This document shows positions 642 to 38,420 of a stretch of DNA of 64,000 nucleotides, in pieces. Position 1 is the stretch's first letter. Each line of letters begins with the position of its first letter. Origin of the DNA: Raillietiella orientalis (lineage: Eukaryota); NCBI GenBank assembly GCA_036172245.1, contig JAYWIR010000050.1, positions 682,001 through 746,000 of the forward strand, written 5' to 3'. The position numbers were made by a program, and so were the translations under genes. The notes below the pieces were generated by a model. That model was not told where the DNA came from and did no database searches. It was given only the letters and a program-made list of their open reading frames with translations.

Positions 642-1172
642 ATGTTGGACTGCAGCGCCCTGGAGGACTTGTGGCGGCGACCCGCTTTGGCGCTCCTCAG
701 ACAACCGCAGGACACCGCTTTGGACTTGCTGCGACGCCTCTTCGCCGGAGGCTGGCTGAAAAAGGGTGCTGAGATGATCTCAATGAGACGTTGCATGACA
801 GCAGCCACTTGTTGGAGTCAGGTTCGCGGCGAAGAGAGGCCACCAGCATGGCAGAAGATCCCCATGAGGACAGCAGCAAGGTGGCCAGACGAAGTGGCCA
901 GGGAGATCGCCACCGTCAAGAGTCGCTTCTGGAACGTTGAACCAAAGACCCCTATCCCAACCCTCCTTCCTGCCTTTTTTAATGTATCCATTGTCCGCTC
1001 CCTCGGTTCCCTACTTTTTGGAAGCCCAAAGTTCTGCGTGCCAGTGGTGAACCTCAAAGAACGTCTTTTTTGTGCGTTTTGGCATTTCTTGTTTCTGAGA
1101 GATACCCTTCCTTCCCTCTTCCTTGTGGTTTGTTTTTTTTTGAAATAAACGTCTCGGCGTAACCGGGTTCCA
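642..1172 (+). mobile_element. 5'-truncated L1/Tx1-clade LINE 3' end (family A)
   Basis: ORF2 C-terminal remnant (LDCSALEDLW...ALDLLRRLFAGG...EIATVKSRF) shared with other copies, a T-rich 3' UTR, and the AATAAA+hairpin end. Approximate TSD ccctctggagagttcc (626-641) / ccctctagagattcc (1175-1189). Confidence 0.75.
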
Positions 1173-3464: not shown

Positions 3465-4765
3465 AAAATGGAAATCCCTACGGGGTTCTGCTTTCGATGC
3501 TTCCCTTTCATGCCTTTTTTCTTTTCCGGTTTTTTTTTTTCTTTTGCTTTTCCAAGTGCCGAAAAACCACCCGCCTTCTTAGGGGGAGTGGCCGCGAAAC
3601 TCCTTAAGCACCGTCCATGCTACCCGAGAGTCCATGCCCTCTTCGGAGGCCATGTGGCTGCTGAGATCTCCGTGAGTGGCACCAGGAACCGTGGGTTCGA
3701 ATACTCGGGAAGAATCGACGCCGAGAGATGGGGGTGCGTCGCAGGTTTGCACTTCTTCCGCGAGATGACGCTGGTCGGTCTCTATTCGGGTGTGGCACTG
3801 GTGGAAACTGCATGCCTACGACGAGTGGCTGGGATTGGGAGTCGACCTTCCAGGGTCCTTCCAGGAAACAGAATCAAGGAGTCCCTTGGGATTCACCTCT
3901 GGTCGTGGAAAGCATCCATCCTTCCCCCCTCGTGGATGGACATTCCGTCTCGTGCCATGGAGCTGGCGGATTGATGATGCCTCTCCACAGAGTGTCAAGA
4001 AGTGCGCCGCTGCCTTCAGGGAGCTCCTTTCAGAGAAAGTGGGGAGCATCCCTTCGTGGTTCTCCTCAGAGGAGGAGGAAACAGGAAGCGGTTCCTTTGT
4101 GAATTCCCTTCGGGAAAGAAACGAATGGTCGCCCCCTCAAGAGGACCCCTCCGGAAAGAATAAGGAAGATGAAGTTCCCTTCTGAGACACCCAGGGAGGA
4201 GGTCCCCTTTGGGGTCCCCCTCCTCAGGAGTGAGAGTAACGGACTCCCTTCTTCGGAACCCTTCCTGCATCCATAGGGTGAATCCCTCCCGGGGCATCCC
4301 CTATCTCGTAGAACCGCACGCACCCTCGGGTGGCGTGGAACAGCGTTGAAGAGCTGCGTGAGCCGCCGCCAGGGGCGCGGCGGTTCTTCAGGGACTTGTC
4401 GAAACAAAAAAAAAACTAGAAGGAAAGCAGAGAAGTCAGGAAGGAACCCCAGAAGGATTCCCATCATGCTCTTCAAGTAATGTAACTCTTCAGTCCGAAA
4501 GGGGACCCCCCCATGAATCCAGGAGTCCAGAGGAAGGAGTCCGTTCCTCTCATGCTTGGTGGGGAGTCCCGGAGGGAACCTCTTCCTTGCTTCTTCTCCG
4601 AAGAGAACCCGGAAAGGATCCGCTCCTGGAATTTATTCTCCGGAGGGAACCCGCAAGGCAATCTTCCTCCTAGTTTCCTCCTCCTCTGAAGAGAAATCCT
4701 GAAGGGGCGTCTCCGAGTTTCTCTGAATGGTCGCTCTCCGAAGGGAGCGACGCGCGCTCTTCTGG
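3465..4765 (-). mobile_element. SINE-like repeat copy interrupted by a nested antisense copy of the same family
   Basis: 3465-3644 joined to 4475-4765 aligns by eye with the continuous copies at 26400-26790, 52160-52640 and 56500-56960. Confidence 0.7.
3645..4464 (+). mobile_element. Full-length ~820-bp tRNA-headed SINE-like element
   Basis: Starts GGAGGCCATGTGGC, has a B-box-like GGTTCGAATAC at ~3694, and ends ...ggattcccat(cat). Flanked by catgccctcttc (3633-3644) and catgctcttc (4465-4474). Confidence 0.75.
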
Positions 4766-6429
4766 CACTCTGAGGAAGTGTCATCGATCCACGGGCTTCA
4801 CAGTACGAGACGGAGGACCCCTCTCCCCCTCTCCCTCTCCCCCCGAGGGGGAGGGATGGCCACCGACGCAGGTGAAAGCTTTTTGCTCGAGGGCTGCTGG
4901 GCAGCGCGCGGCCTCCTCGCGAACTGCGCTTGGACGAAACTCCCCGCAGGAGCTTACGAGGCCGAGCCGCAAATGGACGAGAACCTGGCAAGAAGGCGGG
5001 ATGGATTCCGGCTCCAGGCTCCGATCAACCGGCATACCTTGCGGCGAACTCCCCCGGGGCGCCACGGTTTCCGTTCCAAGGCTCCGAGTTGTTCTGCATG
5101 TGCGACAGCACGCGCGCACCTATGTGGAAGGCAGGCAGGGAGCAGGGAGGGGCTCCGTCGCGACGAGTCCAGCCCGGAGGCACCCGAGTCGCCCCTCGTG
5201 CGCCCCAGAATCCGCTGGACGCGAGCCAGCTGCACCGATGAGCGGCTCCGCTGTCTGCGTGCCCCTGGCGGAGGACTCAGGCTAAGCCCAGAGGAACCGA
5301 CTACGACGGCGGAGGAACGGGTGGATCTTCAACGTCCGGTGACCATCGCCAGAACAGCGGCGGCAGCGCTGGCGGACGCCCTGGAAGCAGAGGAAAGTCG
5401 GGCGCAGATGCAGGCTCTTGGAACGACGGAGCTCGTGGCGGGACCAGCGGTTTCCCCGGAGACGGAGCACTCGGACCGTCGCCCCCAGAATGGACGGCGG
5501 CAGATAACGGGGAAGAATTTCCGGAGGAGGGGATGCGACACGCCAGCGTTCCGTTCCCAGTCGACACGGATCTCTCGAGGAAGGAGGAACGGAAGTGGGA
5601 CGCTTCCGTGGCACTCCTCTCTCAGGCATCTTCGTCTCCTCTGATGCCAGTCACACGCAAAAGGAAAAAAAAAAAAAAAAAAATTGCCACTTTGTTTCCG
5701 AGTCCTTTTTCAACTTTCCCGTTGATCATGCGTTTCTTTTTGGTCCAGCGTTTCGTCCATCCTCACTCGCAGTACGCCCAGGGACCCTGCACTTCCGTCG
5801 AGCACGTGAACCGAGTTCGGATTTCAGCCTTCCGTGAAGAAGCGCCGCAGAGAGCCATTTTCACAGAGAGAGAGAGAGAGAAAGCAGCACGCGTTCAAGA
5901 AGAATGCGATTACAGGAGCAGCACTCCGGGGTGGTGTCCACTCACGGTGTCCATCGTTTGCGGCTTCAGAGATTCGTTCCGGTTAAAATTCATACGGGAA
6001 CGCTGTGCTCGATTTTTCTCGCCGGTGGATGCTCTCCGGGCTGCGGAGGACAGCTCCGAATGAACTTCCGTTTTATCCCCGGCATTTCGCTATTTTATCT
6101 TTCCATCGGGAACAGCATACAAAGGGATCATTCCAGAGTTTAATAATCATTATCGACTGGTAAAAAAAAAAATGACTGCAGGTTTTTTTTTTCCTTAAGA
6201 AAAACAAAACAAAACAAAAGGAGGAGGGAAGGAAGGGTGGAAAAGAACGTTCCTCGTGCGAGAGACAGTGCCAGACGTGACGTAAAAGAGGGATGGACTT
6301 CTGGTAGGATCTTTCGTCGCTGCTTTGCATTTTTCCGTGGCATTCGGGCAGATTCTTTCAAAGATGGGCAATTTGCTCATCAAAGCGTCTCCCCCCCTCT
6401 CTCTCGTGAGAGAGAGAGAGAGAGAGAGT

Positions 6430-6600
6430 CAGTTTATCGATCAAAGTACATCTTTTATGATCTTGTAATCGATACCCCGCTGCACAGTGATGACTGCTTC
6501 TCCCAGTTGAAGTGCCAGCACACACTCGACCACACTGCATCTTCGGCGGCCCTCGGGAACTCTTTTGAGGCCACGTCTGCCGAGCCGCTAATTAAAGCAG
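6430..6600 (+). pseudogene. Possible decayed DDE DNA-transposase fragment (Sola-like)
   Basis: HSDDCFSQLKC...GNSFEATS loosely resembles SDGCxxQxK...NFFxxSHGK motifs. Weak, by eye only. Confidence 0.2.
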
Positions 6601-6759
6601 GACGTCGGAATCAAGGGTAGGGGCGACTTAACGATCGAACGCACCCCACGCGCCGAGCTTCCGGAAGTTTCTCCGAGCTCGGGTTGAACTCCGTCGTGTG
6701 GACGTCGCCCTCGAGTGGACCCTCATGGGAGCGCTTCGTTGCTGGGTTCCCTTCTCGGT

Positions 6760-7620
6760 TCGTGCCCGGTCGCTCCGGGGCGTTTATTTGAAAAAAATAA
6801 ATAAATGAGCCACAAGTCATAGGGAAACGGCGCCCTTCCCCCACCCCCCCAAATGAAATTCCGTGAGGATGGCCACTGGCACGCAGGCCGACTTTTTAAG
6901 GAAGTCCGGGACGGGAGGGGAGGGACGATGAATAAATAAATAAAAACAGAACGGGAATGTAGGGACACTTTCGGTTTCAGTCGTTTCTTCTATCCGAGAA
7001 GCGGCTGTGGTTGGCCGCGACCCCCCTGGCGCCTCCTTCTGGTAGGTGAGGCCACCTTGCAGACGTCCTCTTGGAGGCGGCTGCAAGGTGCCTGCAGTCC
7101 GCTAGGGCGCTGCAGTCCAACAGGAGGTGCGGGAGCGATTCGATCGCATCGGGCTGCTGCCGTCGCTCGCCCCTGAAGGCAGACAGTGCTGCGGCCAAAG
7201 GGCGCATCCGGGAACACTCGCGGTGCTCGCGACAACATCGCCTCGCACCTCAAACACTTCCGGGAGGAGGCAACTCCCCTGGGAACCGGGTGCCCCAGAG
7301 CAGAAGCAGCAGGACTTCCCAGCAAAGCGGGAACACGGAGGTGTCCACACGTACAGGGGAGGAACTGCGAGCTCTTCGAGGGAGGGGGGGGGGCACACCG
7401 TGCAGGTCTCTCCGCCGAAAGAGTCCCTCCTCCTCCCGGGAACGAGGAGTAGGCACCGTCCGCCATCCAACGCGCCGCTCGTCTTGCAGCTGTCCGGGAG
7501 TCTCTCGACTCCTGAAGTCGCGCAGGGCAACTCCCACCTCGCCGGCTAGCTGCTATCCTCGTTTGCCCTCCGAGGGCAGATCCGGGACCACTGCCCACCT
7601 CCGGCCCTGCAGAATACCTC
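6760..7620 (-). mobile_element. L1/Tx1-clade LINE 3' fragment (family A)
   Basis: zf-RVT-like ESLPHLLLDCSAL and ...VAANHSRF, a 3' UTR, and the AATAAA+hairpin end at 6760-6790. Confidence 0.75.
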
Positions 7621-8859
7621 CTAGCGGTCGCGTGGGAGTTTCCACAGCAGACGACGCTCCTCTAAGCACACACCTCGAGAGCGGCAACCCGAACTCCAGT
7701 GCCTCCAAGCTTCCCATTTTTGAGGGGGATTGGGGGGGGCAGGAATTTTTTTACTCGGGAGTGGAGCCGCGACGATCGTTGGTTCCCTGCAAACTTCACT
7801 GACTCCGTGAGCGCGCTGACTGTGGGAATCGCGATGCGCGAGGAGCGGTTTGTTTGAGCCAGGGGGGATTTTGGTGCTGGGGTGGCGTACCGATCCATTC
7901 CGCCAGCCGCTCCTGCAGGCGAATCCCTCTACAGGGACACCTGCAGCGAAAGAGACCCTCATCGAGGACCAGGGAGCTCCGTCCATCTCAGCTAGCGACC
8001 CGCGGAGGTGGCGTCCAAGATGTCGCGCGTGTTTGCCATCTGACGGACGCGGTGGCCTGCGTGAATCTCCCTCCGCGCGTGCGCGGACGCGCGCGCAGCA
8101 GCAGCAGACCGAAACCATCCACACTCCACGTCTCGCGTATGACCAGGGGAATCTTCGTGGGTTCTGCGTGGGCCGAAAGCGCAGATGCTGGGCGGTGCGG
8201 ACCGAGGAGTCCAGCTCGCGCAGGCGGGTCGTTGGGAGGAACGGGGAAACTCGAAAGGTGGGCAAGACCTCCCCCCCCCCCCTTGGCCACCATGCCCACC
8301 TCTCGTCCGTTTCCCTCCCGCTGCGGTCGGGGCTCGCGTGCGTCTCTCCCTACTTCGCGGGAGGTGGCCGGTCGGCCCGCGAGCGTACGCGGTAAAGCTC
8401 CCGCAGCGCGCCAGGATCCGAAAGATGGAGGACCCGTAGCTGATCAGGACGACAGCCAGAAAGGAGACTCCGGCGGAGGTCCGCGGCGATTCCAATGCGC
8501 GAGTCGGTCATAGGAGACCGGGCGCAAGGGTGAAAGACGAATCGAACCACCCAGCAGCTGCGGTCCTTCCTCCCCCCTTCCCTCCCAAAGTTTCCCTCAG
8601 AATAGGTGTAGTCCGTCGAAGCGGAAGGGAAGGGGGGGGGGAGTACTCGTCCAGTAAAGCTGAGAATTCGAGGTCTCGGGGCCGAAGCCGACCTCGACCC
8701 GTTCTCGAGCTTTAAAAAAGGGTGAGACGCGCGAGGCTTGCTCGAGCACTGAAGCTCGGATCCACGAGCGGCCTATGGGCCCATTTTGGTGAGCAGAACT
8801 GGCGCTGTGGGCGAGCCAGATGGTGGATTGCGGGGCGAGCGCTCGACGTCCGAAGAGAA

Positions 8860-10440
8860 CCCTCAAAAAGGATCCGTTCCCTGTTTCCTCTTCGGAAGAG
8901 GACCCGAAGGGTCGTTTCCGAGGGGGGAAGCATCTCCTTTGCACGAACGGAGGAGAATCCCGAAGGGTCCCTTGGTTCCTGGAAGGACCCGGAGGGTGGG
9001 CTCTCAATCTCGACCACGCATAAGGGGTATCCGGAGGATTCCGTCTTCCACCAGTGCCACCGCACGTCTTGTCCAGCAAGCCACCGGCAGCGTGGGACTC
9101 GCGTCCTTCCGTCTGCGCCGTCCACGTAGCCTCATCCACTGCGGACTGCACCGTCGGCAGGTGGCCGCGCTGTCCAGGAAGAACGGATGGATCTCGCGCC
9201 GCCCCGCGAACGGGAGTACCTGGTTGCAGGGAATCGCTCGCCACGTGGGCGAGGATCCAGGAGCCAAGCGCGGAGATCCTGGAAGATCCCATAAACAGGG
9301 TGTGTGGGCAAGCAGAATCTCCCTCGCCACCGCGCTGCCCTCCCTTAAGGAGCACATGGGTAGCAAGCAGCCTTACGGCTAGATGGGTGGCTAGATGGCT
9401 TTTCTCCTTCTGGAAACCTCTAGAAGGAGAAAAGGACTGAGCGAGTGGACGATGGGCCAGCTCACTGACGCTGTGATCCCGAGTGCTCGACCTCGTGGAC
9501 TTCTGATCTGGGGCATGCTACTGGGTATCCCGGAGGAAGACTTGCAGTGGCCCCCGGTGCTCCTGAACACCTCACCCTCCCTTTAAAGTGTCAGGAGTCG
9601 GCGTTGATGCTGCTACACTGAAGTCTCCCGTGCAACGCCCGCCGGCATCACTGTACACGAGGGGAAAGGGGTGAACCCGAACAGTGCCAGGTGCGGAGAG
9701 CGGGAATTCCTCCCATGCCTCCTAGTGGACTGCGTTGCCCTATGACCCCTTTGATCCAAATTGGCACTCTTCCGCGACCCTTGGAACCCTCGGTGGCAGT
9801 CCCAGAGACGTTTTGAAGCGCCTCTTCCTGAGCGACGCCCTCATGCCGGCCGCATCCCCAGCAGCACTTTACTGCCCACGCGGCGTGACCGTATTTGCAT
9901 GGAGAAGCAACTCCAGAGGGGATCAGAACGACAGGGACGCCCTCCATGAGAAACTATTGTGCTGTCCTCTTCATGAAGATGGCGTCATCTGGAAGTCGCG
10001 AAACAGGAATTTGCCGGCGTCCTGGCAAGGATGCAGAGGACGCCCTTCAGCACCCAGTGAACCCCCTGCCTATCCCTCCCAATTTTTTTCGTATATATTT
10101 TTCTGTTTTATTTTTTTCTTTTTGTTTATCTTCCCTCCCCTTGTGCTGCCGAGGCGAATCCTGCTGGCCTGCGTGCCAGATCCCGGCAGGTTCTTTTTCG
10201 TATTCATAAGTAACGTGGCAGGTTCGAACGTCTTGCCACATACATGTAGGTTTTTTTTATAAATAAACGCCCGGCGTGACCGGGTGTCAATCTGCCGCCG
10301 TACTCGAATAGAGGCCGACCAGCGCTATCTCGCGGGAGAAACTCGAAGTCACGACGCACCCATTCATTTCCCTGGCGTCGCCCTTCCCCGGGCGGGATTC
10401 GAACCCACGACGCCTCTAGCCACATTGCTTCTGACGCGGG
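8860..10440 (-). mobile_element. SINE-like repeat copy split by a LINE insertion
   Basis: The head with B-box GGTTCGAATCC (~10395-10405, minus) and the body (8860-9065) align with the uninterrupted copy at 3645-4100. Confidence 0.72.
9066..10289 (+). mobile_element. 5'-truncated L1/Tx1-clade LINE (family B), ~1.2 kb
   Basis: Zinc-finger remnant near 9670-9740 (NPNSARCGEREFLPCLLVDC) and DVLKRLFL, homologous to 37776-38264 and 23240-23910. AATAAA+hairpin end; degenerate TSD at 9050-9065 / 10290-10303. Confidence 0.78.
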
Positions 10441-10904
10441 TGCCCATCCCACGGAAGGTGTCCGTTGCTATGGGCAGCAGGACCGCGGGGTCGTGCAATT
10501 CGGCATCCCCTGACGAGCGTTGCCAGCAGCGAGTCCTCCCTTGAGCCGAAGCAACGGGAACTGAAGACGGGCAGCGCATCGAGCGTCTCGAGTCCGCCCT
10601 GCCCGAAGGCTGGGGCAAAGCAGTTCCTGCCCCCGGCGCACCGCCGCCGGAGGGAGGAGGGGGGAGGGGAAGAGGTTTCCGGAGAGGGCGGGAGGATCGC
10701 GACGGTGGCAGCGGGAATGCTCCGGCGAGATGCCGGATGCGCCATGGTCCGGTGCGGAGGAGGCTGCATGCGAACGGTCGGCCCTTAGGGCACGGTCCGG
10801 TCGATCTCGAGTTGTCCCGGTGGCTGTCCATCCTCTTCGGGAGCGTATCGGCGTCGAACACGCGCGGCACACCCGCGACCGACAGAGCACTCGCGAGAAG
10901 ACGA

Positions 10905-11400
10905 TGGACGACTCAGCCTCTGGACCGGAAACCGAGAGGCAGAGTCGTTTTTTTTTTTTTTTTGGTTCTCAAGGAGTGCTGAAGAACCGCACACCTCACG
11001 GGGGCACATAAAGGTCTTCAGCTCTGTCCACATCGCTTGAGGATCCGTGTAGTGAGCTTTCAAACTGTAAGGGGTATCCCGGGAGGGGGCCGCCCTATGA
11101 ATCCGGCAAGGGCTCCGGAGGAAGGAGTCTGTTCCTCTCTGACTCTTGGTAGGGGGACCCTGAGGGGAACCGTCTCTTCCTCGTTCTTTCTGGAGGCATC
11201 CCCGAAGGAAACCCTCACCCTGGCTGCCTCCGGATTGACCTTCCGGTTTGTGAGGGTTGCTCCTCATCCCCTCCCCGGAGGAGGAAACCCGGAAAGCATC
11301 CTCTCCCTGTTCCGTCCTCCCCTGAAGAGGAACCCGAAGGGCTGCTTCCCGATTTGTCTGGGGGTCGCTTCCCGAAAGAAGCAGCGCTCTTCCAGGCACT
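10905..11400 (-). mobile_element. SINE-like repeat, 3' portion
   Basis: Shares the gtgctgaagaaccg, ctatgaatccgg and cccgaagg sub-repeat blocks with the other copies. Confidence 0.68.
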
Positions 11401-13644
11401 CTGTAGAGATGTCGTCAACCCGCCAGCTTCACTAGTCCCTCAAGAGCTCTTCGTCGCGGCGGCGCTGGCGAGGCGGAGTGAAGAGGAAAAAGGGAGCGGC
11501 AGAGGAACGTCGCCATGCCGTGTAGGACGGAGCTGCTCCCGCCTGGAGCCTCCCGGGCATAACTGTGACCATCTGTGGATCCTTTTTTTCTTTCTTCGTT
11601 TGTTCGTTTTCACCACGGAGACGGGTCTATAGGATGGAGCCAGAGGGCCACACGACTGAGAGGGCAGGTTAGGGTGGCATGGAGCGTGCGGGCAGGGGGG
11701 CCGGCATCAACCCGCAACACCGTCCGGGATGATCGCCTCGGGCCCTCCTTCCAGGGAAAAGGCGCACACTCCAGATACTAGGGGAAGAGGGGACACGCAT
11801 GTGGCACGCGACAAGCGCCAGAGGCGGCGTACACTCCGAAGATGGCAAGGGTCCTGGCCAGCTCGGTGGTCTCTGGCGCTCTTCGTCGAGTCGGCGCTGG
11901 CGATGCGGAGCAAGGAGCGGAGGAGGAGGATATTTGTCGGGAGGCGGACACTCTGTGGATGCTGCGCAGGGTCGAGGCGCGCGTGCGACAGCAGCGTGCG
12001 TGGTCCCGTAGCGCCAGTCCGCGTGTGTTGGAGTCCTGACGGTTGCGCGTCAGGGAAGGGTCGGATGGACGGTCCACGGATGGCGAGGAGCTGGCCGATT
12101 CCGAGTCCTCCGGAGGGGGACGGGTTCGCCTGGAGCCGCTGGCCCGCAGAGGGCTTCGGCGCGGCGCCCAGGACGCTCCGTATGACCTCCTAGCGCGCGA
12201 ACGCAAGCATGAGCCGCTATCTTTCTCCTCCTCCTCGCCGCCGTGACCGTCGCCGACGTCATCACGGCTGCCGCCGGCGCCTTCCCTGTAGCCGTCGTCA
12301 CCGCCTTCCTCCTCCTCCTCTTGACCGTTGGTCTTCGCGCTCCCCCAAACTGGCGCTACTGCCTTCGCCGCCATCGTCATGGTCATCATGACCGTCATCG
12401 ACGTCGGAGCATACGTTCGTGGCGTCTTTTCTTTGGTTTCTCTGCTTCACAGAGTTCGATGAGTCGCTGATCTCAAATGGACCTGAAGTTCTGATTCACG
12501 CAGCCACGGTCCTGACTTTCCCTCGACTTCCGTTTTGCCGCGCTGAGATGATTCTTCTTAGCGTGGCAGAGATACCCGGGAGGCAGGTGCTACCGTTCGA
12601 CAGCACCGTGTGCGAGGGTTGCTCTGGAGTTCATCTGCAACTCCCTGGAAAACTCTCGAGGGTGGCAGGTGGGATAGCGAGCAGCAGGTGTTTCACGCAG
12701 GGGGTGCGTGGCCACTGGACTGGGAGTTTCGGTGCCGGAGTGGAGAGTTTTTCTCAAAGGATTCTGGGCTCTTTGCTCTTTGGTGAGGCTCCTTAATGGA
12801 ATCGAGAGATGACGGTGCTGCTTCGGCAGCAAGTGGGTAAAAAGCTTAGGGCGAGGTGAAATCTTAGGGTGGCTCAGATGGGGCCAGTGTTCCGATGCGC
12901 TGTTGAATGTCGCCAGAGCGCACCGGGATTCTTTTGCGGGTGGAAGGGAAGACGATGAAAAAATGATAAAAGCACGTGCAATCGCTTCCGAAGCAACAGC
13001 ATGAAGCTCTTTCCCTCCCCCCTCCCCACTTCCCCTTCCCCATCGTGCCGCTACGCGAATGGTGCAAAGAGCACAAGAATCCTGAAGCAGTGTTATCTAC
13101 AAAAATCCAGCTTGAGGATCGATTCCATTAAGAGGGCACTGCGTTTTATGGGGCACAATACAAAACCGTGAGAGAGGAGAGCGAAATAATTAGCTTTTCC
13201 GAATTCTGAATTCTGTACGAAAAGAATGCTTCAGTGCAGATGTAATACACAAGAGAGAGTGTAGAACGATCGGGGTACAACACCGGATTGCATGTTTAAT
13301 TACTCCTCGTGTTTTTTTTATAAATACTAACAGGATCTTCTTCCTGAGTGGTTCTTGCAATCAACGGTTTATCAATGGTTTATTTATGGGGACGATCTTG
13401 ACGGGCACAAGAGCTCCGAGTTCCCTCTTCTGAAGTTCATTTCAATTTTCGATAGATGGCGCGTGAAGACCACGCACGACCACATTCCTCCGTAATCAGC
13501 GAAACGCACTTGAAGTGGTTGATTGCGGAAACTCGCGCATCAGGGAATTTGCGAGGACCTTTCCATAATTTCGTTTGCAAATTGCGCTCTCGAGTCGGAT
13601 CGAAGAACAAAGACATTTGCTCTCGCAGCCAAGGGAAACGCGCA

Positions 13645-14170
13645 CCCTTCTTTTCAGCCGGCTGGGCTGCTGCCGTGCTGGTGGCCTCCCCTCGCCGCGA
13701 ACCTGGCTCCAGCAAGTGGCGGGATGTCACCATGGCGCGGATGCAACGCCTCGCCGAGATCGTCGCAGCACCCTCCTTCAGCCCGCCTCCGGTGAAGAGG
13801 CGTCGCAGCAAGTCCAGAGCGGTTGCCTGCGGGTCGCCGCCGCAAGCCCTCCAGGGCGGCGCCGCAGGCCAGCAGTTCAGGAAGGCGGCTCTCCCGGAAA
13901 CCAGGTGGAATCGGCGCAGAAGCAGCACAGCATCCCGTTCGCCACCGGGGAGGGAACGCGGGGGTGTCCGTGCGGAGGGAAGGGACCACAAGTCCTTCGG
14001 GGGGGGGGGCACCGAGAAGCTCTCCCCACCGAAGGAGTCCCTTTGCCCGGAAGCGAGGAGTGGCGGCGTTCAGCAACTCGCTCGTCTTGCAGCCGTCCAA
14101 GGGTTTTTCGCGACTCCTGCCATGCTGCAGGACAACCCCCACCCCTTCGGCTGGCTGCTGTCATTTCTTG
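13645..14170 (-). mobile_element. Family A LINE fragment with internal deletions
   Basis: ALDLLRRLFTGGGLKEGA motif; lacks the CxxC...ESLPH segment present at ~21960-22010. Confidence 0.7.
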
Positions 14171-15084
14171 CCCTGAGGGCTTCATCCATAGGGAGGTAAA
14201 CCTCCGTCAGCATTCCAGCACGTCCGTTTCCTGCGTGCAGAGACTATATGGACGAGCGAACACGCCGGACGCCGACCTCATGAAATCGAAAAGAGCTAAA
14301 AGAGTCGCACTTGAGGATTTGCGGGGAAATACGCTGCGGCAGCGAACTTTGAACTTCATCGCGGTGCTTTCGTGCTGCAAACCTGCAGCTCCCTCAAATC
14401 GGGAGCCGAAGACCCCGCAAAAGCGGCGGACGGTCCTTTCGCCGCCGCTTTCTGGGTGCTCGCGAGAGGACAACGAACTGGGCGTTTTGAGGCCTGGGGG
14501 CCGAAAGGACCGAAAGCTTGGCCTGGAAGGTCAGCAGCTCGCGGGGCTGCCGGGTCGGTGACCGGTGGCGCGGCGGGGTCAGCGGTGCAGTGACCATCGA
14601 CTGCATCGCTTCAGGCTGCGTGCCTCCGGATCAGTTCGCCGTTCGGTCAGGGACGGGGGATGGATGACGGCCTGTGTTGGTGTGGAAATGACGTAACAAT
14701 CGAAAAGAAGATCAACATCCGTCGGGCGCAGCCTCTCAGTTCCGTTCGATTTTCGCGCTTCGCAAGAAGCTTTTCCATCCGATACCTGATGTGCAGTGTA
14801 ATGGCAATAGCAGTATCTTGAGAGATTCGAGATAGGTTTAGATTATAAACGAATAATTAACAATCTGTGATATGCTGGGGAAAGAAAGAAAGAAAATGAT
14901 AAAACTGGAAATTTCAGAAAACATATAGGGGCACTCGTTCACAGTGCAAGAGCCGCAAGAGGAGGTTGCCTGCAAGACCACTATATGATAACGGCGCTGT
15001 CACTTAAGGAAAGGGTGCAAACGTTAAATAAATTATAATTGTGCGCGGTGAATATTCCCGAAATCTTTCACTACTTTCCTGCTC

Positions 15085-15300
15085 TTTGACCACCCTCCCT
15101 GGAAAAATCTCGGGTGTCCTGCATCCTCATCTCGCGGAAGCAAGCAGGAGCGACAAGCAGTACCTTCTTGTCGTAGGTCTTCCGGATCCCGTCGTCCCCC
15201 CCTTCGGGCAGGAGTCCTCCAAAACACACCCAACAGCCCGTGCCGACTCCGATGCGCCGACGGAAGGCGAGGGAGGCTCTGCCGAAAAGAGAGGTCAAGC
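15085..15300 (-). mobile_element. Possible LINE ORF2 C-terminal remnant
   Basis: LFGRASLAF...CWV...FREMRMQD loosely parallels the other LINE C-termini in the window. Confidence 0.3.
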
Positions 15301-17064
15301 GCTGACATGGGAGGCAGAAAACTCGTCGAAGACCACGGAAACGAACCTACAATTTTTTTTTTTCTTTTTTTTTTGAGGGGGAGGGGCACAGATTCTTCAC
15401 CTGGAGGTAATTCACTTAGCAGACAATTAATCTATGGCATTCCCGGCTCTAATGAATAATTATTGATGCTTAATCGACACTACACAGATACTAGAGAGGG
15501 AAGTATTGTCTAAAAATGTATAGGTGATGGTCGTAATCGTCTTTGGACAGCATTGATGCCTGAGGGAGAAGCAAATTACGCTTCTTATCGTGCCGAAAGC
15601 AACCAATTCAACTCACTTTCAAGGAACAAACCGAACAATTTGTCTTCATCAAACGATGGAATGATTCGAACGAATAAAGGTGGACGTGGAAAAAGGCAGC
15701 TGGGTTCCTGTTGAAATCAAGGGATCCAAGGAACCCTCTGAAAGCGTTCAGGAGAACCATGGGATGGACGTGGCAGCTGTCGGCATCCCTGTGTTTTCCA
15801 GGAAATCTGCTCCCTTCCGTCAGTAGCCGGGAAACGGCACTTCCCTTTTCCAGCTCCAGATCCCGGAAGGCCGACGACACATCTGTCGTGGGCCATGAGC
15901 GAGCGGGAGTTTCGTCACAGTGAACCATGGCGTGGGTATAGGTGGTCATAAGGGTCAACATGCCCATGCATAGGGATGTATGGGTATGTTAATTCGTAAT
16001 GCATTCTTATGCAATACCTGGTATGCAGTATAAGATAATAATGATACTCAGTATAAGGGTTGTACTAATTTCTTGAGAGATTCGAGCAGATATGGCTTGA
16101 TTGGTAAAATACCCTGAATATTTGCATTATTAATAAGTAATCAACATTCCAAAAGACAAAGAGTACATAAAATGATAAAACTGAAATGTTCACAACGTTA
16201 AAAGAAAATTAGTTTGTGATGTATGTATATATTTGTTTGTATATAGATGTTTGTATATATATATTGAAACCCACAAACTAATTTTCTAACCACTATTCTA
16301 TTTCTAACCACAAACTAATTATATATATATATATATATATGAAAGCCGATAAACCATAATAATTTGGCAGTATTTGTATATATGGTGTAATAAGAACAGC
16401 ACAATTTAGTGTACATATATATATATGTGTGTGTTCTTATTAAGCTTTACATACAGTTTACTAAGAATGGGGTCATTTTGAATCCGACTGTATGCAATGG
16501 TGGGCGGGCGGCCAATTTCCCGAATCCAACGTCGGGCAGCAAAGGGAAGGTGAGGACTGGGAAAAAGCCTGCTGCTGTCTCCGTTTCTCTTGTTCGAGAA
16601 AATTCTCCGGGAGCAGAGCGTGCGCGTCAGGGTTAGGAGAAGACATGAAAGGCCCTTTGATTCCTTGCATCCCAAATTGCATTCTTCTGGAAGCGAAGGA
16701 ATCAATCGGTTCATTTGCTGCTGCTGCGCTTTGAAGATGGAGCTGGTCCCAAACGAAGAGCGACGTGATGTTTCGCTTCAGGCAGTCGGGGAGCTTCAGC
16801 AGCTGCTACGTGAGTGGGTCCGTCGTCACCGGGTCAGCTCTTTGATGTTTCATCTGCCACGCTGCACGAATCGCATGTTGATCAGCAGCAAGCGAGCCAT
16901 TTCATTCCTCTGCTGCAGCCGCATGAACTGCAGCAAGATCTCTTGGGGTTTGCACGGAACAAAAATGGCAGCACGCTGGTTGTTGAGGGGGTGCAAAATC
17001 GCAAGAAAGGGTTCGCGAGTCTGAGGGGAAATGGCTGGACATACACCCCAGGAGGATGTGCCTC

Positions 17065-17320
17065 GGGGTTCCCGGCATCCGACCCCTTGACTCCCTCCCA
17101 TGTGTGTGGACACCTCCGTGTTCCCGCCCCGGTGGCAAGGGGATGCTCTGCCGCTTCTGCGCCGATCCCACCTGGTTTCCGGGAGAACCGCCTCCCCGAA
17201 CTGCTGGCCTGCGGCGCCGGCCTGGAGGGCTTGCGGCGGCGACCCGCAGGCAGCAGCTCTGGACTTGCAGCGACGCCTCTTCACCGGAGGCGGACTGAGC
17301 AAGGATGCTGCAATGATTTC
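17065..17320 (+). mobile_element. Family A LINE fragment with the same deletions as 13645-14170
   Basis: gaactgctggcctgcggcgcc...gcggcggcgacccgcagg is nearly identical to the reverse complement of ~13790-13900. Confidence 0.7.
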
Positions 17321-17479
17321 ACACCCGGGTGCGCTCTCTCTTAGAGGAATCAATGAAGCCAAAAGGATCACCGATTCCAATTATTACACTAAAAAAAGGG
17401 GGAGACCGGCGAGGTCCACCACGTTCACGAATGGAAAGGCGGATAAAACAGAAAATAGAAAAAAAAAAAGAAACAGACT

Positions 17480-17695
17480 ATAACGAACAATAAAAACTAA
17501 CGAAAAAAAAAAAAAAGATCAACTGGGGGGAAGGGAAGGGATCACATTTCGTGGTGGGTGAGGCCTCTGCATCCGTTGAAGGATGCTGGCGAGCTCCTCC
17601 TTCTCTCTTTCCAGGTAGGGCAACCTCAAAGCTATCTGCAGGAAGCGGATGGCATGCAGGACAGCCCCCCCGCCACTCTGACCTCTCTCTCGGGG
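17480..17695 (-). mobile_element. Family B-like LINE 3' end
   Basis: EELASILQRMQRP followed by gtgatcccttccc matches the ends near 23560-23625 and 10010-10080. Confidence 0.55.
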
Positions 17696-17696
17696 T

Positions 17697-18087
17697 CGCA
17701 CTTTGCCGCGACTGCCCGCACGTTCCAGACAATCCAGGAATTCAAATGGGAGCTTTTTAACATCACCCACCTCCCAGTCCTGCCCAGTGGCTACCACGCC
17801 TTCCTTCCGGCGCCTCCAGGAGTGGCTCAACCACTCGATGGGGGAAGGTGAGGAGTGGAAAGCGGCAGTGCTGCTGAAGTGGATGAACTACCAGGCGGAG
17901 GAATTCCCTGCAGACGGTTTCGAAAAGCTTCTTCTACGGTGGCAGAAGTGTTTGCAAAAGAATGGCGACTACGTGGAAAAACGACACGGGGATGCGCGTG
18001 TTCATAGCCACCGCCAATGCATTTCTGCTTCTCTTATTCGTTCTTTATATTCTTCTATCCTCCCTCACTTTTGAAATGAGCCTCGTA
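17697..18087 (+). mobile_element. Decayed mariner (Tc1/mariner) transposon: transposase C-terminus and right TIR
   Basis: Frameshifted FKWELF...LPSGYHAF (degenerate WExLxHPPYSPDLAPSDYHLF) and DGFEKLLLRWQKCLQKNGDYVEK. The terminus cttttgaaatgagcctcg-TA resembles a mariner TIR plus TA target. Confidence 0.85.
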
Positions 18088-18094
18088 GACAGAA

Positions 18095-18350
18095 TCGTTC
18101 AAACTGAATAGAAATCAGCCAAACGCTAGAAGCTTCTTTCACTTTAAGATACATTCTAATTTCTTTAGCCTTTCGTTTCAGGATGAAATATAATAGATAT
18201 TGTACAGCTATGACGTTTAAGGTACATTTTACATCTTTGATGAGCATAGTCATATCATCCACGTACACGAGAGGTCTGCTGTACTTTGATTCCAGATGCG
18301 TACGAGAGAGACCTCTCTAGAAGTTGCTGCCAGGCAATCGATACTCAGCC
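18095..18350 (-). mobile_element. Non-LTR reverse transcriptase fragment
   Basis: PLVYVDDMTMLIKD (YxDD catalytic motif) followed by KEAS. Confidence 0.6.
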
Positions 18351-18869
18351 CATCTTTTCAAGAGGGAGGAATGGGGCTGCTCCTTTCTTTTTGTTGCTTT
18401 CGTTTCCATTTCTTCTTTTTTATTTTTGCAAGAAAGTAGATAAGTGACATCGTACAAACGGGAGTCTTCAGAGTGGGGGATGGGGCTGACCTTTCAGCGG
18501 GGTCCAACACGCCAGCGCCAAGCCAACAGCAAAGCCGAGTGCGCTTTCTCCAGGCTTGCATGTCTTCCGTGTCTCCTCTGCGTTGCCCGTGGGTGTCCTC
18601 CCCCCGAATCTTTCAGAACTGCCGAATCCACCCTACAAGATCTGAAAATTAGGGCGACCCTAATTCGCCCGATTCCGGATTGCTGGATCCCGAGGGGAAT
18701 CGACCAAACGCTGCTGCTGCTGCACCACGGGGGCGAGCTGTGCCATCTCCAGCCCGTTGCCTTCCGATCTTCCCGTGCACTTCCCAATGCATCCGAGCTC
18801 GTTCGCCGGGAGGGAAGGAGAGGACGGGAAAGAGAGGGGGTGGGCGGGTGGACAACTTGAAAATGTGGT

Positions 18870-19260
18870 GGTGGCGAACCAGGAGGCCGCCACCCGGTCC
18901 GGTCGAGTCCACGAAAGAATTCGTGGACTTCGATGTCTCACGTGCGGGCAGGCAAGGAAGGGTGAGAGAGGCAGCAGCAATGCTCTCTCACTCCGTGTGG
19001 TGATTCCATCGGCAACGGGGGGAATCTCTGCTTTTGAGCTCTTTAATTATGCATTTTTTCTCCCTTCTTCCTCCTCCTCCTCTACACGGCTCGTTGCATC
19101 GGTGCATGCAGGCAGCATTCGTTTCGGAGGCCGAAACGAAACGAATCATCGAATTTTCACGTTTTATCATTACGAAAGAAAGCAAATCGAATCTGCTGGA
19201 TGTTCGGAAAGGAAGTTCTTTCTCCAAAGCAGGAACGGAAAAGACGGTCGCCGGATCCTT
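18870..19260 (+). mobile_element. Possible LINE ORF1 zinc-knuckle / ORF2 start remnant
   Basis: LRCLTCGQ followed by a weakly APE-like segment. Confidence 0.25.
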
Positions 19261-20499
19261 TAAGGAGCGGCAAGGCTTCGTTCCGGTGGACGAAGAGAGC
19301 GTTCGCCCGCAGCAACTCGCAACGCCAGCTGAGTCACTCTTCTGCGGAGATGCGCTCTCGCATTACTTCCTCTTCCCTCTTCTTTCTTTTTCTTTTTCTC
19401 CTGCATGCTTTGCAGCTCCCCTGCGACCAATGGGGACAGAGTGCCCAACGATTCCCGAGTCTGCTCTTCCAGAAGGAAGCAGAGAACAGGAAGCGTCTCC
19501 GAATTTCCCCCCTGTCCGATTCGCGGTGGGGAGGACGAATCGGTCCAGAAACAGAACAGAGAAACGAGCTAACAAGGCGCTGCTGCCACGGGCAACGTCG
19601 AGCGTGCTTGTTTTCGGAGTCGCAGGTAGGACACGCGTCTCGCAGGTGCGGGGAGGGTAGAAGAAGCTCGGGGAGATTCAGAGCACCGCGTTTTGCACCA
19701 GGGGGTCTTGCGGCGAGGGAAGTGCCCGCTTCGTGAAGTTTCCGGAGGGCGTAGCCGGACTGAGGAAGAGTCCCCTCTTCCTTAGTCACGGATTCCCATT
19801 TTGTTTCCTCAGCAAACCCATTTAAAGGTCTGTTGCTGTCAGTTCTCCGGGAGACGAAGCATCGAGGCAGTTTCGTGAAGCGGGGTGTTTCAGAGCCGGC
19901 ATGAGTAAAATGGTCAGCCTCCTACTCAGGGACCACTGGCTGGCTCCCTCCGTCACAGCGTGAAGGTGAGCGCGTGAAGCGGGCCGGGTGAAGGCGGAGG
20001 GGGCATTCGCCGTCGCCGGTCACTAGTCGACGGGTCACGCGGGGCGCGCGCAGGCGAGACGACGTGCTGCCGCTGGGCGCGCGAATGCCGGAGCCGTCCC
20101 AGCGTCACTCTCACAGTGGGGATCGAGACTCACGACGCACCCAACAAGGCGACGACCCCCTTCAAGGCAGTCCGACTGGATCTGAGTGAGAATCCCCACG
20201 CGTAGGCACTTCAAGTGCTTCTGCGTTCCGTCGGGAGACTTCTGCGTCGAGGAAGCGCGGTCGGGCTGTTTTGGGAAAGGCCGAGACGGTTCTCGAACCG
20301 TTCCTCGATGGCAAGTTCATCTTGCCTCAACGGACCACGATCTGGAACACTTTCGTGACCCTCCTTCTTCTTCGTCCCTATCCCCCCCCCCCCCAGCCAT
20401 CCTCGCCTTCTATTCGACGAGGATCCGCACGCAGCGTCTTTTAAGGAAAGCCCTGTGGGGGCGCTGCAAGGTCCCGGTCCGCCTAAAACACACCGCGAA

Positions 20500-20940
20500 G
20501 CCCCGGCTAGGACATCCTGACTTTAGAAAAAATCGAATTCCAGGTGCGCTACGCGCCAAATCGAGGACTGTCCGTGGTGTATTCCCGTGCACCTCCTCCT
20601 CCGGCATTGCACTGGCAGCGAAGGGCAACTCCCGTTGCTACCGTGAGGGAAGAAAGGGGTTCCGCTTCCCGCGGAGGCGGCCAGTCTCACTTTTGGAAGG
20701 CCACCTGTGGACCTCCCGCCGCTGCAGGAACCAGAAGGCCTGGCGGCAGGGGGTAGAGAAGAAATGGGCCTCCCCATCGGAAGTACACCCAGAAATACTC
20801 CATCCTTTGTGGGACTCTCTCCTCATCTCCCGTGTCCGCTCGGAGTGTCCTGCAAAACTGGACGAAGTGTTCCCGACAGGTCGCGGCTCTTTTTGCCGCA
20901 GCGCTGCCTGCCCTGAGGGGAGTTCGTCTTTTTTCCCGCA
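20500..20940 (-). mobile_element. LINE RT C-terminal remnant
   Basis: MEYFWVYF resembles the K/EYLGVxF motif of the RT thumb region. Confidence 0.35.
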
Positions 20941-20959
20941 CCACTGTGGGAGCTCCCGG

Positions 20960-21400: not shown

Positions 21401-21449
21401 CACCCGCAAGAGGCCGGCTGCGAGGTGGCCTCACGTGCGAGAAGTCATT

Positions 21450-22835
21450 TGTTACCCGGTTGCTTCGGGACGTTTATTAATAAGAAATCATCTGGGAACA
21501 CAGTTCCCAGGCAAGGGGAGCAGAAGTTGAGGAGGAGCGTTTCCCGACACGCAGGTCGGGCATACTGAGAGCTCGGAACGTCAGGAAGGGGACAATAAAC
21601 AAATACAAATAGTGGGGCGGGTAGGGACAGAGCTCTGCAGTTTCAGCCATTCCTATTCTCAGAACCGGCGATGAATGCCGGCAATCTCCGTCCTCACTTC
21701 TTCGTCAAGATGTGGCCACCCAGCAGCCAGTTGCAGATGGCAGCCTGCACTGTCGGGGACCGATGTGGGGACCGCTCGCAGCTGCAACACGTGGTGGGTC
21801 CTGGCAATGGCGCGAACGCAGCAGATGATTGAGACGACCGCTCCCAGAGAAAGACCGCCACGCGTGAAGAAGCGGCGCATCCAGTCCATCGCGGTGCCCC
21901 ACGGATGCAGGAGCACTGAAGGCAGCAGCTCCTGGAGGGCACCGCATTCGAATAGCAGGTGCGGGAGCGATTCCACCAATCCGCATTTTGCACAGTTCGG
22001 GGACGAGACTCCCCCGGAAACCAGGTGCGCGCGCTGGTTGCAATACAGACCCCAATGCACCAGCAGAAAAAAGTCCTGCTTCCACCGAAGGGGAACACAG
22101 TCGCGTCCAAGCACGGGGAAGGAACCACAAGTTCTTCGGCGGGCACCCCGAGGAGCTCGCTCCAGCGGAGAAGTCCCTTGGCACGAATGCGAGGCATGGC
22201 AGCGTCTGCCAGCTAGCTGGTCCTCCAGCCGCCCAGAGGTCGGGTTTCGCCTGCGATAGCGCAGGCGACCTGCCACCTTGCCGGTAGGCAACTGTCTTCT
22301 CGTGCCCTTAGGGCAGACAGCGCTTCGGCGAGGGGCGTAGCGGCCAGGCGAGTCCACTTGTCCTGGTCTTGCATCACCTCCCCCACTGGACAGTATGGGG
22401 AAAGGTTCACGCAACGGAGTTCCAAACGGGACACATCCTGTTGCGCTGCCCAGGACGATGGGGATTTCTGCCGCCGCCAGGCGTTGAAGTTCGTCGGCCG
22501 GCAAGAGATCCACGAATGCGTTCCCAGGAGCGAGGCGAGCTGCCTCAGCGGGAAGCCGAATCCTCTCGTGGTACACTCCGTATGCGGGTGCAATGCAAGC
22601 AGTCCGTGGCCCCCCGTGCAGCGCCGCAGCAGCAGCCGTGCGGGAGCACACCAGGGAGTCGTCCAAAGCTGGGCACAAAGTGCGAAACTACACGAGCAGT
22701 ACGATCCGCTCCAGCGTCAGGATGCCCAAGCCGGCATCCCACCGAGGAGACGCCAAGTCCTTGAGGCGGATGCTGGACCTCGCCGGTCCCCACAAAGCGT
22801 TCCGCAATAGGTGTTTCGCCCGGAGCTTGGCTGAG
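21450..22835 (-). mobile_element. Longest family A L1/Tx1-clade LINE 3' fragment (~1.4 kb)
   Basis: NALWGPARSSIRLKDLASPRWDAGLG (FLW...P...GGLG motif) and zf-RVT SPNCAKCGLVESLPHLLFECGAL, with stop at 21659, a 3' UTR, and the AATAAA+hairpin end at 21450-21479. Confidence 0.88.
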
Positions 22836-22904: not shown

Positions 22905-23236
22905 CGCTCCTGCAGGACGAACCTGCGACCTTGGAACTGGCCCAGAGCAGTCTCGGCCTTGTGAAGGCAGTCTGACGGCGCTTCTGCTGGACGGAAGTCG
23001 TGGAGGAGATTGCCGGCGTCGGGCGCCGGTAGTACCAAAAGACACCTGACCTTTTGGTTCTTTATTAATTGTCCCCTCCTGCCTATTGAATGATTTGTTT
23101 TTTTTATCCTCCGTGTCGGAGGAGCCTCCCCACGAATTCATTTTTTTTTCCCCGTGTTTTTGTTTCGAGGACTGAGTTCCCTGCTTGTTTGCTTTGCTTA
23201 CTTTTTCAAATAACACCCCGGCGTTGACCGGCAGTA
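22905..23236 (+). mobile_element. Family A LINE extreme 3' end
   Basis: EVVEEIAGVGRR matches EVRTEIAGIHRR; T-rich UTR; degenerate AATAA+hairpin end. Confidence 0.6.
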
Positions 23237-23239
23237 CGT

Positions 23240-23910
23240 AAAACCCTCTTTCCCCACTCCTGTGCGAGACAAGAGGGAGTGCAACCCCACACTGTGCCAG
23301 GTGCAGGGAACGGGAAATCTTCCCCGTACCTGTTGCTGGATGCGTTGCCCTCCTGGGTGTCCGAGAACGCTTCTCTCCCGATGGACAACGGAAGAGGGGT
23401 TTCGCGGCGCCTCTTCGCGCGCGACTCGATGTCGCCTGCGGGTTCGTGGGATCGTGGCATCAGGAAGCCGCTCCGGAAGAGGCCAGTCAAACGGTGAGGT
23501 CTACTCCTTCATGAGGAAGGCGACAAGATAACGGCATCTCTAGCAACAAGAGGAGGAAGTTGCCAACATCCTCCAGAGGATGCTGAGGACGCCAGGAAGA
23601 AATCTGTGATCCCTTGCCTTCCTCCCCCCCTAAGCATTTACAAACCAAACTTTTTTGTGTATATGTCTGTGTGTGTGTGTATGTTTTTTGTTTTTGTTCA
23701 CCCCTTCCCCCACTCCTCCTGTGCGGACCTCATCAGGGGCGCTGCTGGCGAGAAGCGGGGTGCCTCCGAGGCGGCATCTCCTTCCTAGTGACGATGTGAA
23801 GCCACCATGAAGAAGAATGACATTTTTTTTAAAATATTTTACATGACTCTTTTTTTCTGTGCATATTTTTTTTTTTTTTGCAATGAACGCCCCGGAGCGA
23901 CCTGGCGAAA
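23240..23910 (+). mobile_element. Family B-like LINE 3' fragment
   Basis: cacactgtgccaggtgcagggaacgggaa matches 9675-9710 (zinc finger); RRLFARD; ends caatgaacgccccggagcgacctgg. Confidence 0.65.
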
Positions 23911-37627: not shown

Positions 37628-38420
37628 TTGGGGGCGTGTGGCTGCGGCCCTCGCGCGTGGTGCCAAACGTTGGCGGGTCCGAATCCCCCACGAGGGGGAT
37701 CGACGTCAGAGAAATGGGGGGTGCGTCGTGGGTTTCGAGTCGCCGCCGCAAGGTAACGCTGGTTGCGGCACTGGTTGACACCCGGTCACGCCGGAGCATT
37801 TATTTATAAAAAATAAGCGTCTGTGGCAGGACGTTTGATCCTGCCACGCTGCTTATAGCTACGAGAAGGAACCTGCCGGGAACCGGCGCGCAGGCCAGCG
37901 GGGTTCGCCTCGGCCCCACAGGGGAAGGGATCACCGTGTGCTGGAGGGTGTCCTCTGCATCCTTCGCAGGATGCCGTCAAGTTCCTGTTTTATGATTCCC
38001 AGATGGGAACCATCTTGACGCTGTCCTCATGAAGAGGACGGCAAAACAGATGGTGTCCCTGTGGCTCTGGCCTCCTCTGGCCTTGCTCCATGCAACCACG
38101 GTCCCATCGCCTGGACAGCAAACTGCTGCCGGGGATGTCACCTGCCGTCGTGAGGGGGTCGCGCAGGAAGAGGCGCTTCGCAACGTCTCTGGCGTTGCTG
38201 TCGGGGGTTCCAAGGGCCGCAGCAAAGCGTCCCCAAACGGGTCGGAGGGCAACACAGCACACTAGGTTGCGGCATCGGTGGAAGCCGGAAACCGGATGCC
38301 CTCCCCAACCGGGCGGGGATTGGAAGTTGACCCTCCGGGATCCTTCCAGGAATCAAGGAGCCGTTCCCTCTTCTGTTGAGAAAGTGGAGTCGTACTTATT
38401 CCACGGAGGGTTGGCTGATA
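37628..38420 (+). mobile_element. SINE-like copy split by a family B LINE
   Basis: The head (ggggcgtgtggctgc...gggtccgaatccccc) and the continuation from 38265 align with 3645-3900. Confidence 0.7.
37776..38264 (-). mobile_element. 5'-truncated family B LINE (489 bp) with a 15-bp TSD
   Basis: ALGTPDSNARDVAKRLFLRDPL matches 9780-9850; AATAAA+hairpin end; TSD ggttgcggcactggt (37761-37775) / ggttgcggcatcggt (38265-38279). Confidence 0.82.

Follow-up and report, generated by a model that had tools for sequence, protein, structure and literature searches.

Several described systems bear on how a LINE 3' end is recognized by its own reverse transcriptase (RT). In the account of UnaL2, the stem contains a single bulge and carries a GGAUA pentaloop, the second G of which is recognized (PMC1636434), and the ORF2p of ZfL2 is reported to bind its cognate loop (PMC4176376). 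Within the L1 group, families lacking a 3' repeat make up 9 of 233 in flowering plants and 5 of 15 in green algae (PMC3472496, Table 1); a conserved terminal hairpin is described for the monocot 1a group, and a shared tail for Chlamydomonas L1-1_CR (PMC3472496, PMC3747384, PMC5135761). In vertebrate L1, AATAAA followed by a poly-A tail was reported for all species examined (PMC5381506), and in the human L1 work cited here, four terminal T pairing with poly(A) suffice for priming, with an influence of the last ten bases (PMC3649969). SINEU elements, which are attributed to Tx1-Mar, are described as poly(A)-tailed (PMC4494074). Whether the ancestral L1 state was stringent (structure-recognizing) or relaxed (poly(A)-recognizing) has so far been argued, in the account cited, from plants and algae (PMC3472496).

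Results

The DNA analyzed here, referred to as the window, is a stretch of 64,000 nucleotides of Raillietiella orientalis (GCA_036172245.1, contig JAYWIR010000050.1, positions 682,001 to 746,000, forward strand), and all coordinates are positions within it. An earlier note on this DNA had described seven LINE 3' ends, from at least two families, that finish in AATAAA and a conserved hairpin with no poly(A). Its coordinates are retained as copy names (1144, 6790, 10261, 21479, 23208, 23881, and 37805), with 10261 as the focal copy. All seven sites are present and had been placed correctly to within 1 to 2 nt; the hexamers start at 1144(+), 6788(-), 10262(+), 21478(-), 23209(+), 23882(+), and 37804(-). 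Anchored on the stem, the 3' module is ordered as T-rich tract, hexamer, 2 to 3 nt, 5' arm, loop, 3' arm, and about 5 nt, and the consensus of the seven 5'-truncated copies from two lineages is the hexamer followed by a CCCGG-MGYRA-CCGGG hairpin. The AATAAA ending stands as a hexamer at every site but is exact in only five of the seven, the others reading AATAAC (23209) and AATGAA (23882). The recurrence is far above chance: when up to 3 mismatches were allowed, a 24-nt pattern matched 5 times, compared with 0.01 expected from 100 shuffles, and a stricter gapped pattern gave 2 matches compared with 0.00 expected in shuffles. A covariance model built from the seven copies recovers those seven at 42 to 57 bits, by construction, and its next match scores 12.3 bits; neither this model nor a relaxed motif scan of the window detected a further copy with the full motif.

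In the focal copy, the hexamer (10262..10267, +) follows the T tract, the terminal hairpin (10270..10284, +) consists of a 5-bp GC stem, extendable to 8 bp in this copy, with the pentaloop CGTGA, and the final 5 nt of the element (10285..10289, +) end in CA without an A tail. The copies do fall into two lineages, A and B. In lineage A, the module at 1144..1172(+) ends a copy at about 642-1172 with a target site duplication (TSD) at about 621-641/1173-1189; the module at 6760..6788(-) ends a copy at about 7577-6760 (copy 6790), for which a TSD was sought and none found; the module at 21450..21478(-) ends a copy at about 23005-21450 that was inserted antisense into the ORF2 end of copy 23208; and the module at 23209..23237(+), which has AATAAC and a 6-nt loop, ends copy 23208 itself, at about 20162-21444 plus 22995-23237. 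Lineage B comprises, besides the focal copy, a copy that follows copy 23208 in tandem at about 23265-23910 and ends in the AATGAA module at 23882..23910(+), and a copy at about 38262-37776 ending in the module at 37776..37804(-), which has a 15-bp TSD and occupies the same host-repeat site as copy 10261. An eighth copy, also of lineage B, lies at about 17720-17317, and its decayed end (17317..17340, -) falls below detection by the seven-copy covariance model: the T-rich UTR, the 3' stem arm, and a TG-like terminus are kept, the hexamer and 5' arm are gone, and there is no A tail. The full motif is found at 7 of 8 ends and poly(A) at 0 of 8.

Outside the window, the exact 24-nt motif had no match in metagenome contigs, and it was absent from 7 metagenome loci with distant RTs (best segments 22-61%, short). 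A search of viral contigs for relatives returned no loci. The loose motif gave at least 120 matches in viral contigs, which we take as chance, an ORF2 relative being encoded at none of 120 loci.

Each motif site terminates a decayed, 5'-truncated ORF2 C-terminus, and the copies are old and frameshifted. Aligned body segments among the copies are mostly 58-80% identical, with the bodies of the two lineages at about 60-75%, and copies 10261 and 37805 are 71-80% identical to each other. The focal element (9065..10289, +) is a decayed, 5'-truncated L1/Tx1-group LINE copy of lineage B that retains the C-terminal part of ORF2 and the 3' UTR; tblastn of the metagenome protein P0004 matches it from 9065 (53%, E 4e-12). 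P0004 was the best match (58% identity over the thumb region) of three proteins, among 1.84 billion representatives, that matched a read-through translation of copy 21479, and it matches the window at 23005-22435, 9065-9241, and 20162-20830. Because the window has no RT core, RT membership was judged on this relative, which carries an RVT_1 domain (E 5e-24). Compared with solved structures, the P0004 RT is nearest to human L1 ORF2p (E 7e-40 to 5e-39), with R2 at 7e-17 or weaker. Its database relatives are mostly endonuclease plus RT plus zf-RVT proteins of 23-32% identity, and in a quick RT tree of 49 rows with no named Tx1 reference, it forms a long branch without a reliable place. The zf-RVT match of the window copy is weak (14.9 bits, E 0.043, under the curated cut-off of 27.5), and the copy aligns to the zf-RVT region of the full ORF2 proteins P0005 and P0006; of 382 candidates from a protein search that used the zf-RVT part of P0001 as query, none scored. 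As in the L1 group, 5' truncation is accompanied by TSDs, readable for 37805, 1144, 10261, and 21479. Taken at group level, the earlier L1/Tx1 assignment is upheld by the proximity of the P0004 RT to human L1 ORF2p, and the protein matches support identification of these elements as ORF2 ends of L1-group (L1/Tx1) LINEs, the L1 and Tx1 clades being left undivided.

Three further ORF2 pieces lack any recognizable 3' end, whether motif or tail, and are uninformative on this point: 13667-14180, 17092-17320 together with 18504-18556, and 25041-25195. The lineage A pieces at 13667-14180(-) and 17092-17320(+)/18504-18556(+) are 87-90% identical and apparently have a common break from ORF2 end to a UTR-like stretch, possibly marking a deletion derivative. 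Antisense nesting in the ORF2 end of a copy of the same group occurs twice, with 21450-23005(-) in 20162-23237(+) and 17317-17720(-) in 17092-18556(+), at different positions of the host LINE copy. Elsewhere in the window, a fragment at 17850-17984(+) is similar to the C-terminal end of mariner transposases (SETMAR, E 0.0013; Mos1, E 0.13). The large open frame at 59898-61385(+), likely a host exon, runs into the beginning of a C-type lectin domain (E 5e-5); by eye, the same gene may have further exons in the frames at 42758-43429(+) and 44661-45203(+). At 32633-32759, 54962-55248, and 2436-2576 lie a 36-nt tandem repeat, in 3 copies, and two arrays of purine-rich, triplet-like sequence.

The loops of the terminal hairpin, in copy order from 1144 to 37805, are CGTAA, AGCGA, CGTGA, AGCAA, CGTTGA, AGCGA, and CGTGA. 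The conserved hairpin described earlier is real in outline, with 32 of 35 stem pairs standard and G at loop position 2 and a final A in all seven copies, but it is not perfect: the loop is 5 nt in six copies and 6 nt in one, and the 5-bp stem is all Watson-Crick in two copies, has one G-U pair in two, and has one mismatch in three. None of the three broken pairs has been repaired. An extra G-Y pair beyond one unpaired base is present in 6 of the 7 copies. The terminal 24 nt are conserved across both lineages, with a mean pairwise identity of 0.80 within lineages and 0.80 between them, compared with 0.42 for random 24-mers. Identity is 0.57 in the T-rich 24 nt upstream, 0.39 in the last 5 nt, 0.41 in the downstream flank, and 0.40-0.45 in further UTR bins, where fixed offsets and indels depress the values.

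Although a 5-bp stem is predicted by RNAalifold, the compensatory changes proposed as a check were not found; the earlier note had listed a stem lacking covariation among the outcomes that would refute it. A two-sided change occurs in 0 of 5 pairs among seven copies, and the covariation score of the terminal stem is 0.150 compared with 0.197 in shuffles; with a nearly invariant stem and seven decayed copies, this is a low-powered comparison that neither supports nor refutes pairing. Since there is no two-sided change, conservation of the terminal stem could be of sequence only. Single-sequence folds in short context do form the stem, and in five of the seven copies most of its pairs have probabilities of 0.5-1.0; for copy 10261, it is 0.99-1.0 in a 61-nt context and 0.86 in a 156-nt context. 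In a 156-nt context, with 150 nt of upstream sequence, the terminal stem is dominant in only two of the seven decayed copies. Folding z-scores are unremarkable for six of the seven ends, and only 10261 reaches -2.3. Of the features expected of stringent-type elements, a conserved 3'-terminal sequence able to form a stem-loop is present, compensatory stem changes are absent from this nearly invariant stem (0 of 5 pairs), and no partner SINE with the same tail was found in the 64-kb window.

Further structure may lie upstream. In the focal copy, a UTR hairpin designated H1 (10164..10179, +), with loop CTGCGT, is shared with lineage A, and a second, H2 (10215..10239, +), with an 8-bp stem, is present in copy 37805 too. 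H1 with a CTGCGY loop is also found at 37881-37898(-), 6876-6891(-), and 21543-21560(-). The loop motif occurs 99-134 nt upstream of the stem end with 4 matches compared with 0.44 expected, plus two degenerate extra matches, and is found in both lineages; it was not found in copy 23881 or the eighth copy. The description of the UTRs as otherwise divergent does not hold throughout, this H1 motif being common to both lineages about 100-135 nt upstream of the stem end. The H1 stem is 5-6 bp in four copies, with one mismatch in 6790, and is broken in 1144 and 23208. Two-sided change was found in 3 of 6 H1 pairs; copy 21479 is the source of all three, of which one may reflect CpG decay. Among the sequencing runs listed, one DNA run contained this sequence, at a small share, and no RNA run did. 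Contigs from the DNA run, aligned to 5500-24500, are mostly diverged (189 of 274 under 90%) and resolved no 3' junction, and among related contigs, the commonest differences are C>T and G>A. A further hairpin stands ahead of the T tract in 10261, 37805, and 21479. The evidence is thin, but it suggests a structured 3' UTR. One fold of 21479 pointed to a long-range pairing between H1 and the terminal stem; this was rejected as a conserved feature, the arms mismatching by eye in the other copies.

Two of the copies interrupt a SINE-like repeat. This host repeat, about 800 bp long, has a B-box-like head (by eye), contains short repeats internally, and ends in a tail of 5-16 A; ARAGORN found no tRNA. 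Copies are located at 3650-4421(+), 26423-27077(-), and 56506-57300(-), tail parts at 3532-3644(-), 4467-4859(-), 10948-11455(-), and 52216-52698(-), and interrupted copies at 8849-10439(-) and 37636-38655(+); several copies are without the head. The focal insertion separates the head part of its host copy (10294..10439, -; nhmmer) from the other side of the same copy (8849..9061, -; nhmmer model positions 145-291 and 397-473). The 5' TSD copy, of about 15-16 bp (9050..9065, +), matches empty sites at about 3790(-) and 26945(+), and the 3' TSD copy (10290..10303, +) is decayed, with a 2-nt gap and mismatches. Copies 10261 and 37805 interrupt the repeat at one position, both antisense, with insertions of about 1225 nt and about 490 nt, respectively, separate TSDs, and different 5' ends. 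Their insertions were therefore independent, since the lengths differ and each has its own TSD. Two host-repeat copies without an insertion, at about 3790 and 26945, contain the target but not the motif (a third copy is deleted there), and the motif is likewise the terminus of copies that lie within other LINE copies or in unrelated DNA. The motif thus belongs to the element, since the empty sites lack it, and the concern that it might be flanking target DNA is settled.

The TSDs fix the ends less uniformly than had been supposed. In a blind TSD search scored against 500 random segments, 37805 was significant (0.8% of random segments as good) and 1144 marginal (4.8%), but the other five copies, including 10261, were not significant, and the 10261 end at 10289 is instead set within a base by the empty sites of the host repeat. 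The 37805 TSD is 15 bp, of which 13 are identical, and starts 5 nt past the stem; that of 1144 is 17-21 bp. Copy 21479, antisense inside copy 23208, has a duplication of about 12-14 bp by eye. Copies 23208 and 23881 are in tandem in the head of another host-repeat copy (13.3 bits, compared with a maximum of 5.3 in 1000 random joins), with three TSD-like stretches by eye; their TSDs are suggestive. A target preference is possible, with 2 of 8 copies at one host-repeat site (9050/10290 and 38277/37775); the tandem pair (nest 20162-23910) lies about 55 nt from that site in another repeat copy, and the remaining copies are elsewhere.

No A tract follows the stem, as the earlier note had stated: the longest A runs in the 25 nt past the stem of the seven copies are 2, 2, 2, 3, 4, 4, and 2. 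The stop about 5 nt past the stem is likewise confirmed, with 1-4 A at the junction and a distance from hexamer start to 5 nt past the stem of 29 nt in six copies and 28 nt in one. The readable TSDs (1144, 10261, 37805, and 21479) begin with A, are not A-rich, and abut the end within 0-1 nt; the primer strand would therefore end in a single T, in contrast to the four of human L1 (PMC3649969). Neither feature of relaxed-type L1, a tail on genomic copies or a T-rich primer, was found (0 of 8 ends tailed). In all 7 host-repeat ends examined, A runs of 5-16 nt have been retained, including an A12 at about 38644-38655 that belongs, by model position and strand, to the host-repeat copy cut by LINE 37805. 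That host is older than its insert and keeps its A12, so decay does not explain the missing tail of the LINE, and the conclusion that tail absence is not due to decay is supported. Tail absence is read here from genomic copies, which do not tell the poly(A) state of the RNA.

Discussion

We propose that the motif would act in cis as the 3' end of an L1/Tx1-group LINE lineage of stringent type, whose RT would start at a fixed register beside the hairpin and leave any tail uncopied, and we give this reading a probability of roughly 55%. Under the direction of AAUAAA, the RNA would be cleaved in the ordinary way, close to or at the terminal CA and 28-29 nt past the start of the hexamer, and for that reason the element RNA is probably polyadenylated; the spacing falls inside the zone of -10 to -40 described for the hexamer (PMC6771402). 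ORF2p would then bind the terminal pentaloop hairpin, probably aided by the upstream UTR hairpins. L2-clade tails offer an analogy that makes such a role of the hairpin in RT recognition plausible. The bound hairpin would fix the cDNA start at the first A or two past the element end, where the starting A(s) could pair with the one T at the 3' terminus of the nicked strand of the target to form one or two A:T pairs; with the start fixed there, the remaining tail would not be copied into the genome.

Internal initiation on read-through RNA would account for the same ends if AAUAAA were weak, or hidden in a pairing with the U tract upstream, so that transcripts continued into the flank, and the hairpin-bound RT started at a fixed internal position, with no poly(A) junction involved. 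In a 61-nt context, four of the seven copies have a hexamer predicted to be 61-99% paired with sequence upstream of it, but pairing between AAUAAA and a U tract is expected from composition, and the figure is 5-22% in the other three copies. SART1Bm and other R1-clade elements are reported to show internal initiation in the 3' UTR and 3' read-through (PMC7265360), and transcripts from a repeated target could carry target sequence. Nevertheless, the hexamer is retained in both lineages at processing distance, and 3' transduction was absent at every end examined. We regard read-through as unlikely.

A fold of several 3' UTR hairpins could also be at work, in which the nearly invariant H1 CUGCGY loop would contact the terminal module, with 3-4 possible pairs, by eye, to GYR of the terminal loop or to the ACGY linker after the hexamer. 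Such a fold might set its own 3' end and hold the RT at the poly(A) junction, or might replace polyadenylation. If true, it would amount to fully tail-independent, repeat-free priming within the L1 group and would support, outside plants, the view that ancestral L1 recognition was stringent, but we consider it doubtful.

The hairpin may instead serve 3' processing or RNA stability only, for example by setting the hexamer-to-cleavage spacing, with an RT that is not structure-specific and a tail that is short or missing for some other reason. It does sit exactly between the hexamer and the end, structure around the hexamer is described as influencing processing (PMC6771402), and the window holds no partner SINE. 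Relaxed priming, however, predicts variable A tracts and T-rich primers, neither of which was found, and this makes the explanation improbable. It is very improbable that the motif is inherited sequence of no function whose tails were lost by post-insertion decay. The age and frameshifts of the copies and the stem without covariation would fit that explanation, but the terminal 24 nt show the highest identity across lineages, older host-repeat copies have kept their A tails, and the TSDs abut the end within 0-1 nt, which variable-tail decay would not give every time.

The earlier note likened the geometry to histone mRNA ends, with a dedicated cut about 5 nt past the stem-loop and an RNA that is never polyadenylated. 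The stem-to-end distance of about 5 nt and the frequent terminal CA of these copies are indeed like those of histone mRNA ends, which counts in favor of the likeness. The histone stem-loop, however, has a 6-bp stem, a 4-nt loop, a conserved downstream element, and no AAUAAA, compared with a 5-bp stem, a 5-nt loop, and a conserved AATAAA here. Identity in the downstream flank, the place for any U7-type element, is no higher than random (0.41), the window has no Rfam match at the gathering threshold, and the three weak Rfam matches around the focal end (E up to 10) include no histone family. The analogy is therefore unsupported, and a histone-like end is highly improbable. That the motif is target DNA, as the two to four copies in one host repeat with their shared flanks could suggest, is refuted, since the motif is missing from the empty sites near 3790 and 26945 and is found at ends nested in other LINEs and unrelated DNA.

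If the preferred reading of a stringent-type 3' end is right, L1 3'-end recognition would gain a third data point, an animal-type lineage whose copies end at a fixed hairpin and carry a poly(A) signal but leave the tail uncopied. Such a lineage would also be a clean test case for start-site choice by an L1-type RT. The gain is moderate, since the mechanism class is already known, stringent tails having precedent in the L2 clade and in monocot and algal L1, and the function here is proposed from sequence. In the literature searched, from which Repbase, subscription journals, and supplements were set apart, we found no animal L1/Tx1 family with AATAAA and a hairpin and without poly(A).

Like the described tails of UnaL2, ZfL2-1, and ZfL2-2 (PMC1636434, PMC4176376), the ends in R. 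orientalis have a terminal stem-loop and a pentaloop with G at position 2 and a last A, as well as one unpaired base between the upper and lower stem. In L2-clade tails, reverse transcription is described as beginning just 3' of the stem, and our proposed start site would be the counterpart. The clade is different, however, and UnaL2 is reported to end in UGUAA repeats, whereas a 3' repeat is absent here and a conserved AATAAA precedes the stem; the function of L2-clade tails is proven, and that of the present ends is proposed. The monocot LINE1-1_ZM ("monocot 1a") and Chlamydomonas L1-1_CR also combine an L1-group ORF2 with a 3' hairpin conserved far above the body of the element (PMC3472496, PMC3747384). 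As described, those monocot and algal stems covary with free sequence and have partner SINEs, whereas here the stem sequence is fixed and the window contains no partner SINE; L1-1_CR ends in poly(A), unlike the copies here, and the host here, judging by its C-type lectin exon and mariner fragment, looks like an animal. Vertebrate L1 shares the RT (nearest human L1 ORF2p, as tested on P0004), a T-rich 3' UTR, and AATAAA near the end, but it is described as priming on T-rich targets (PMC3649969), and here the hexamer is followed by a hairpin without a tail, and targets are not T-rich. Independent insertions at one repeat position with TSDs of about 15 bp recall Tx1L in Tx1D and Tx1-Mar in Mariner-N4_AMi as reported (PMC4494074), although the target here is a SINE-like repeat and these elements are placed at the level of the L1/Tx1 group. 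A fixed hairpin end without a tail is unusual for an animal-type L1-group element.
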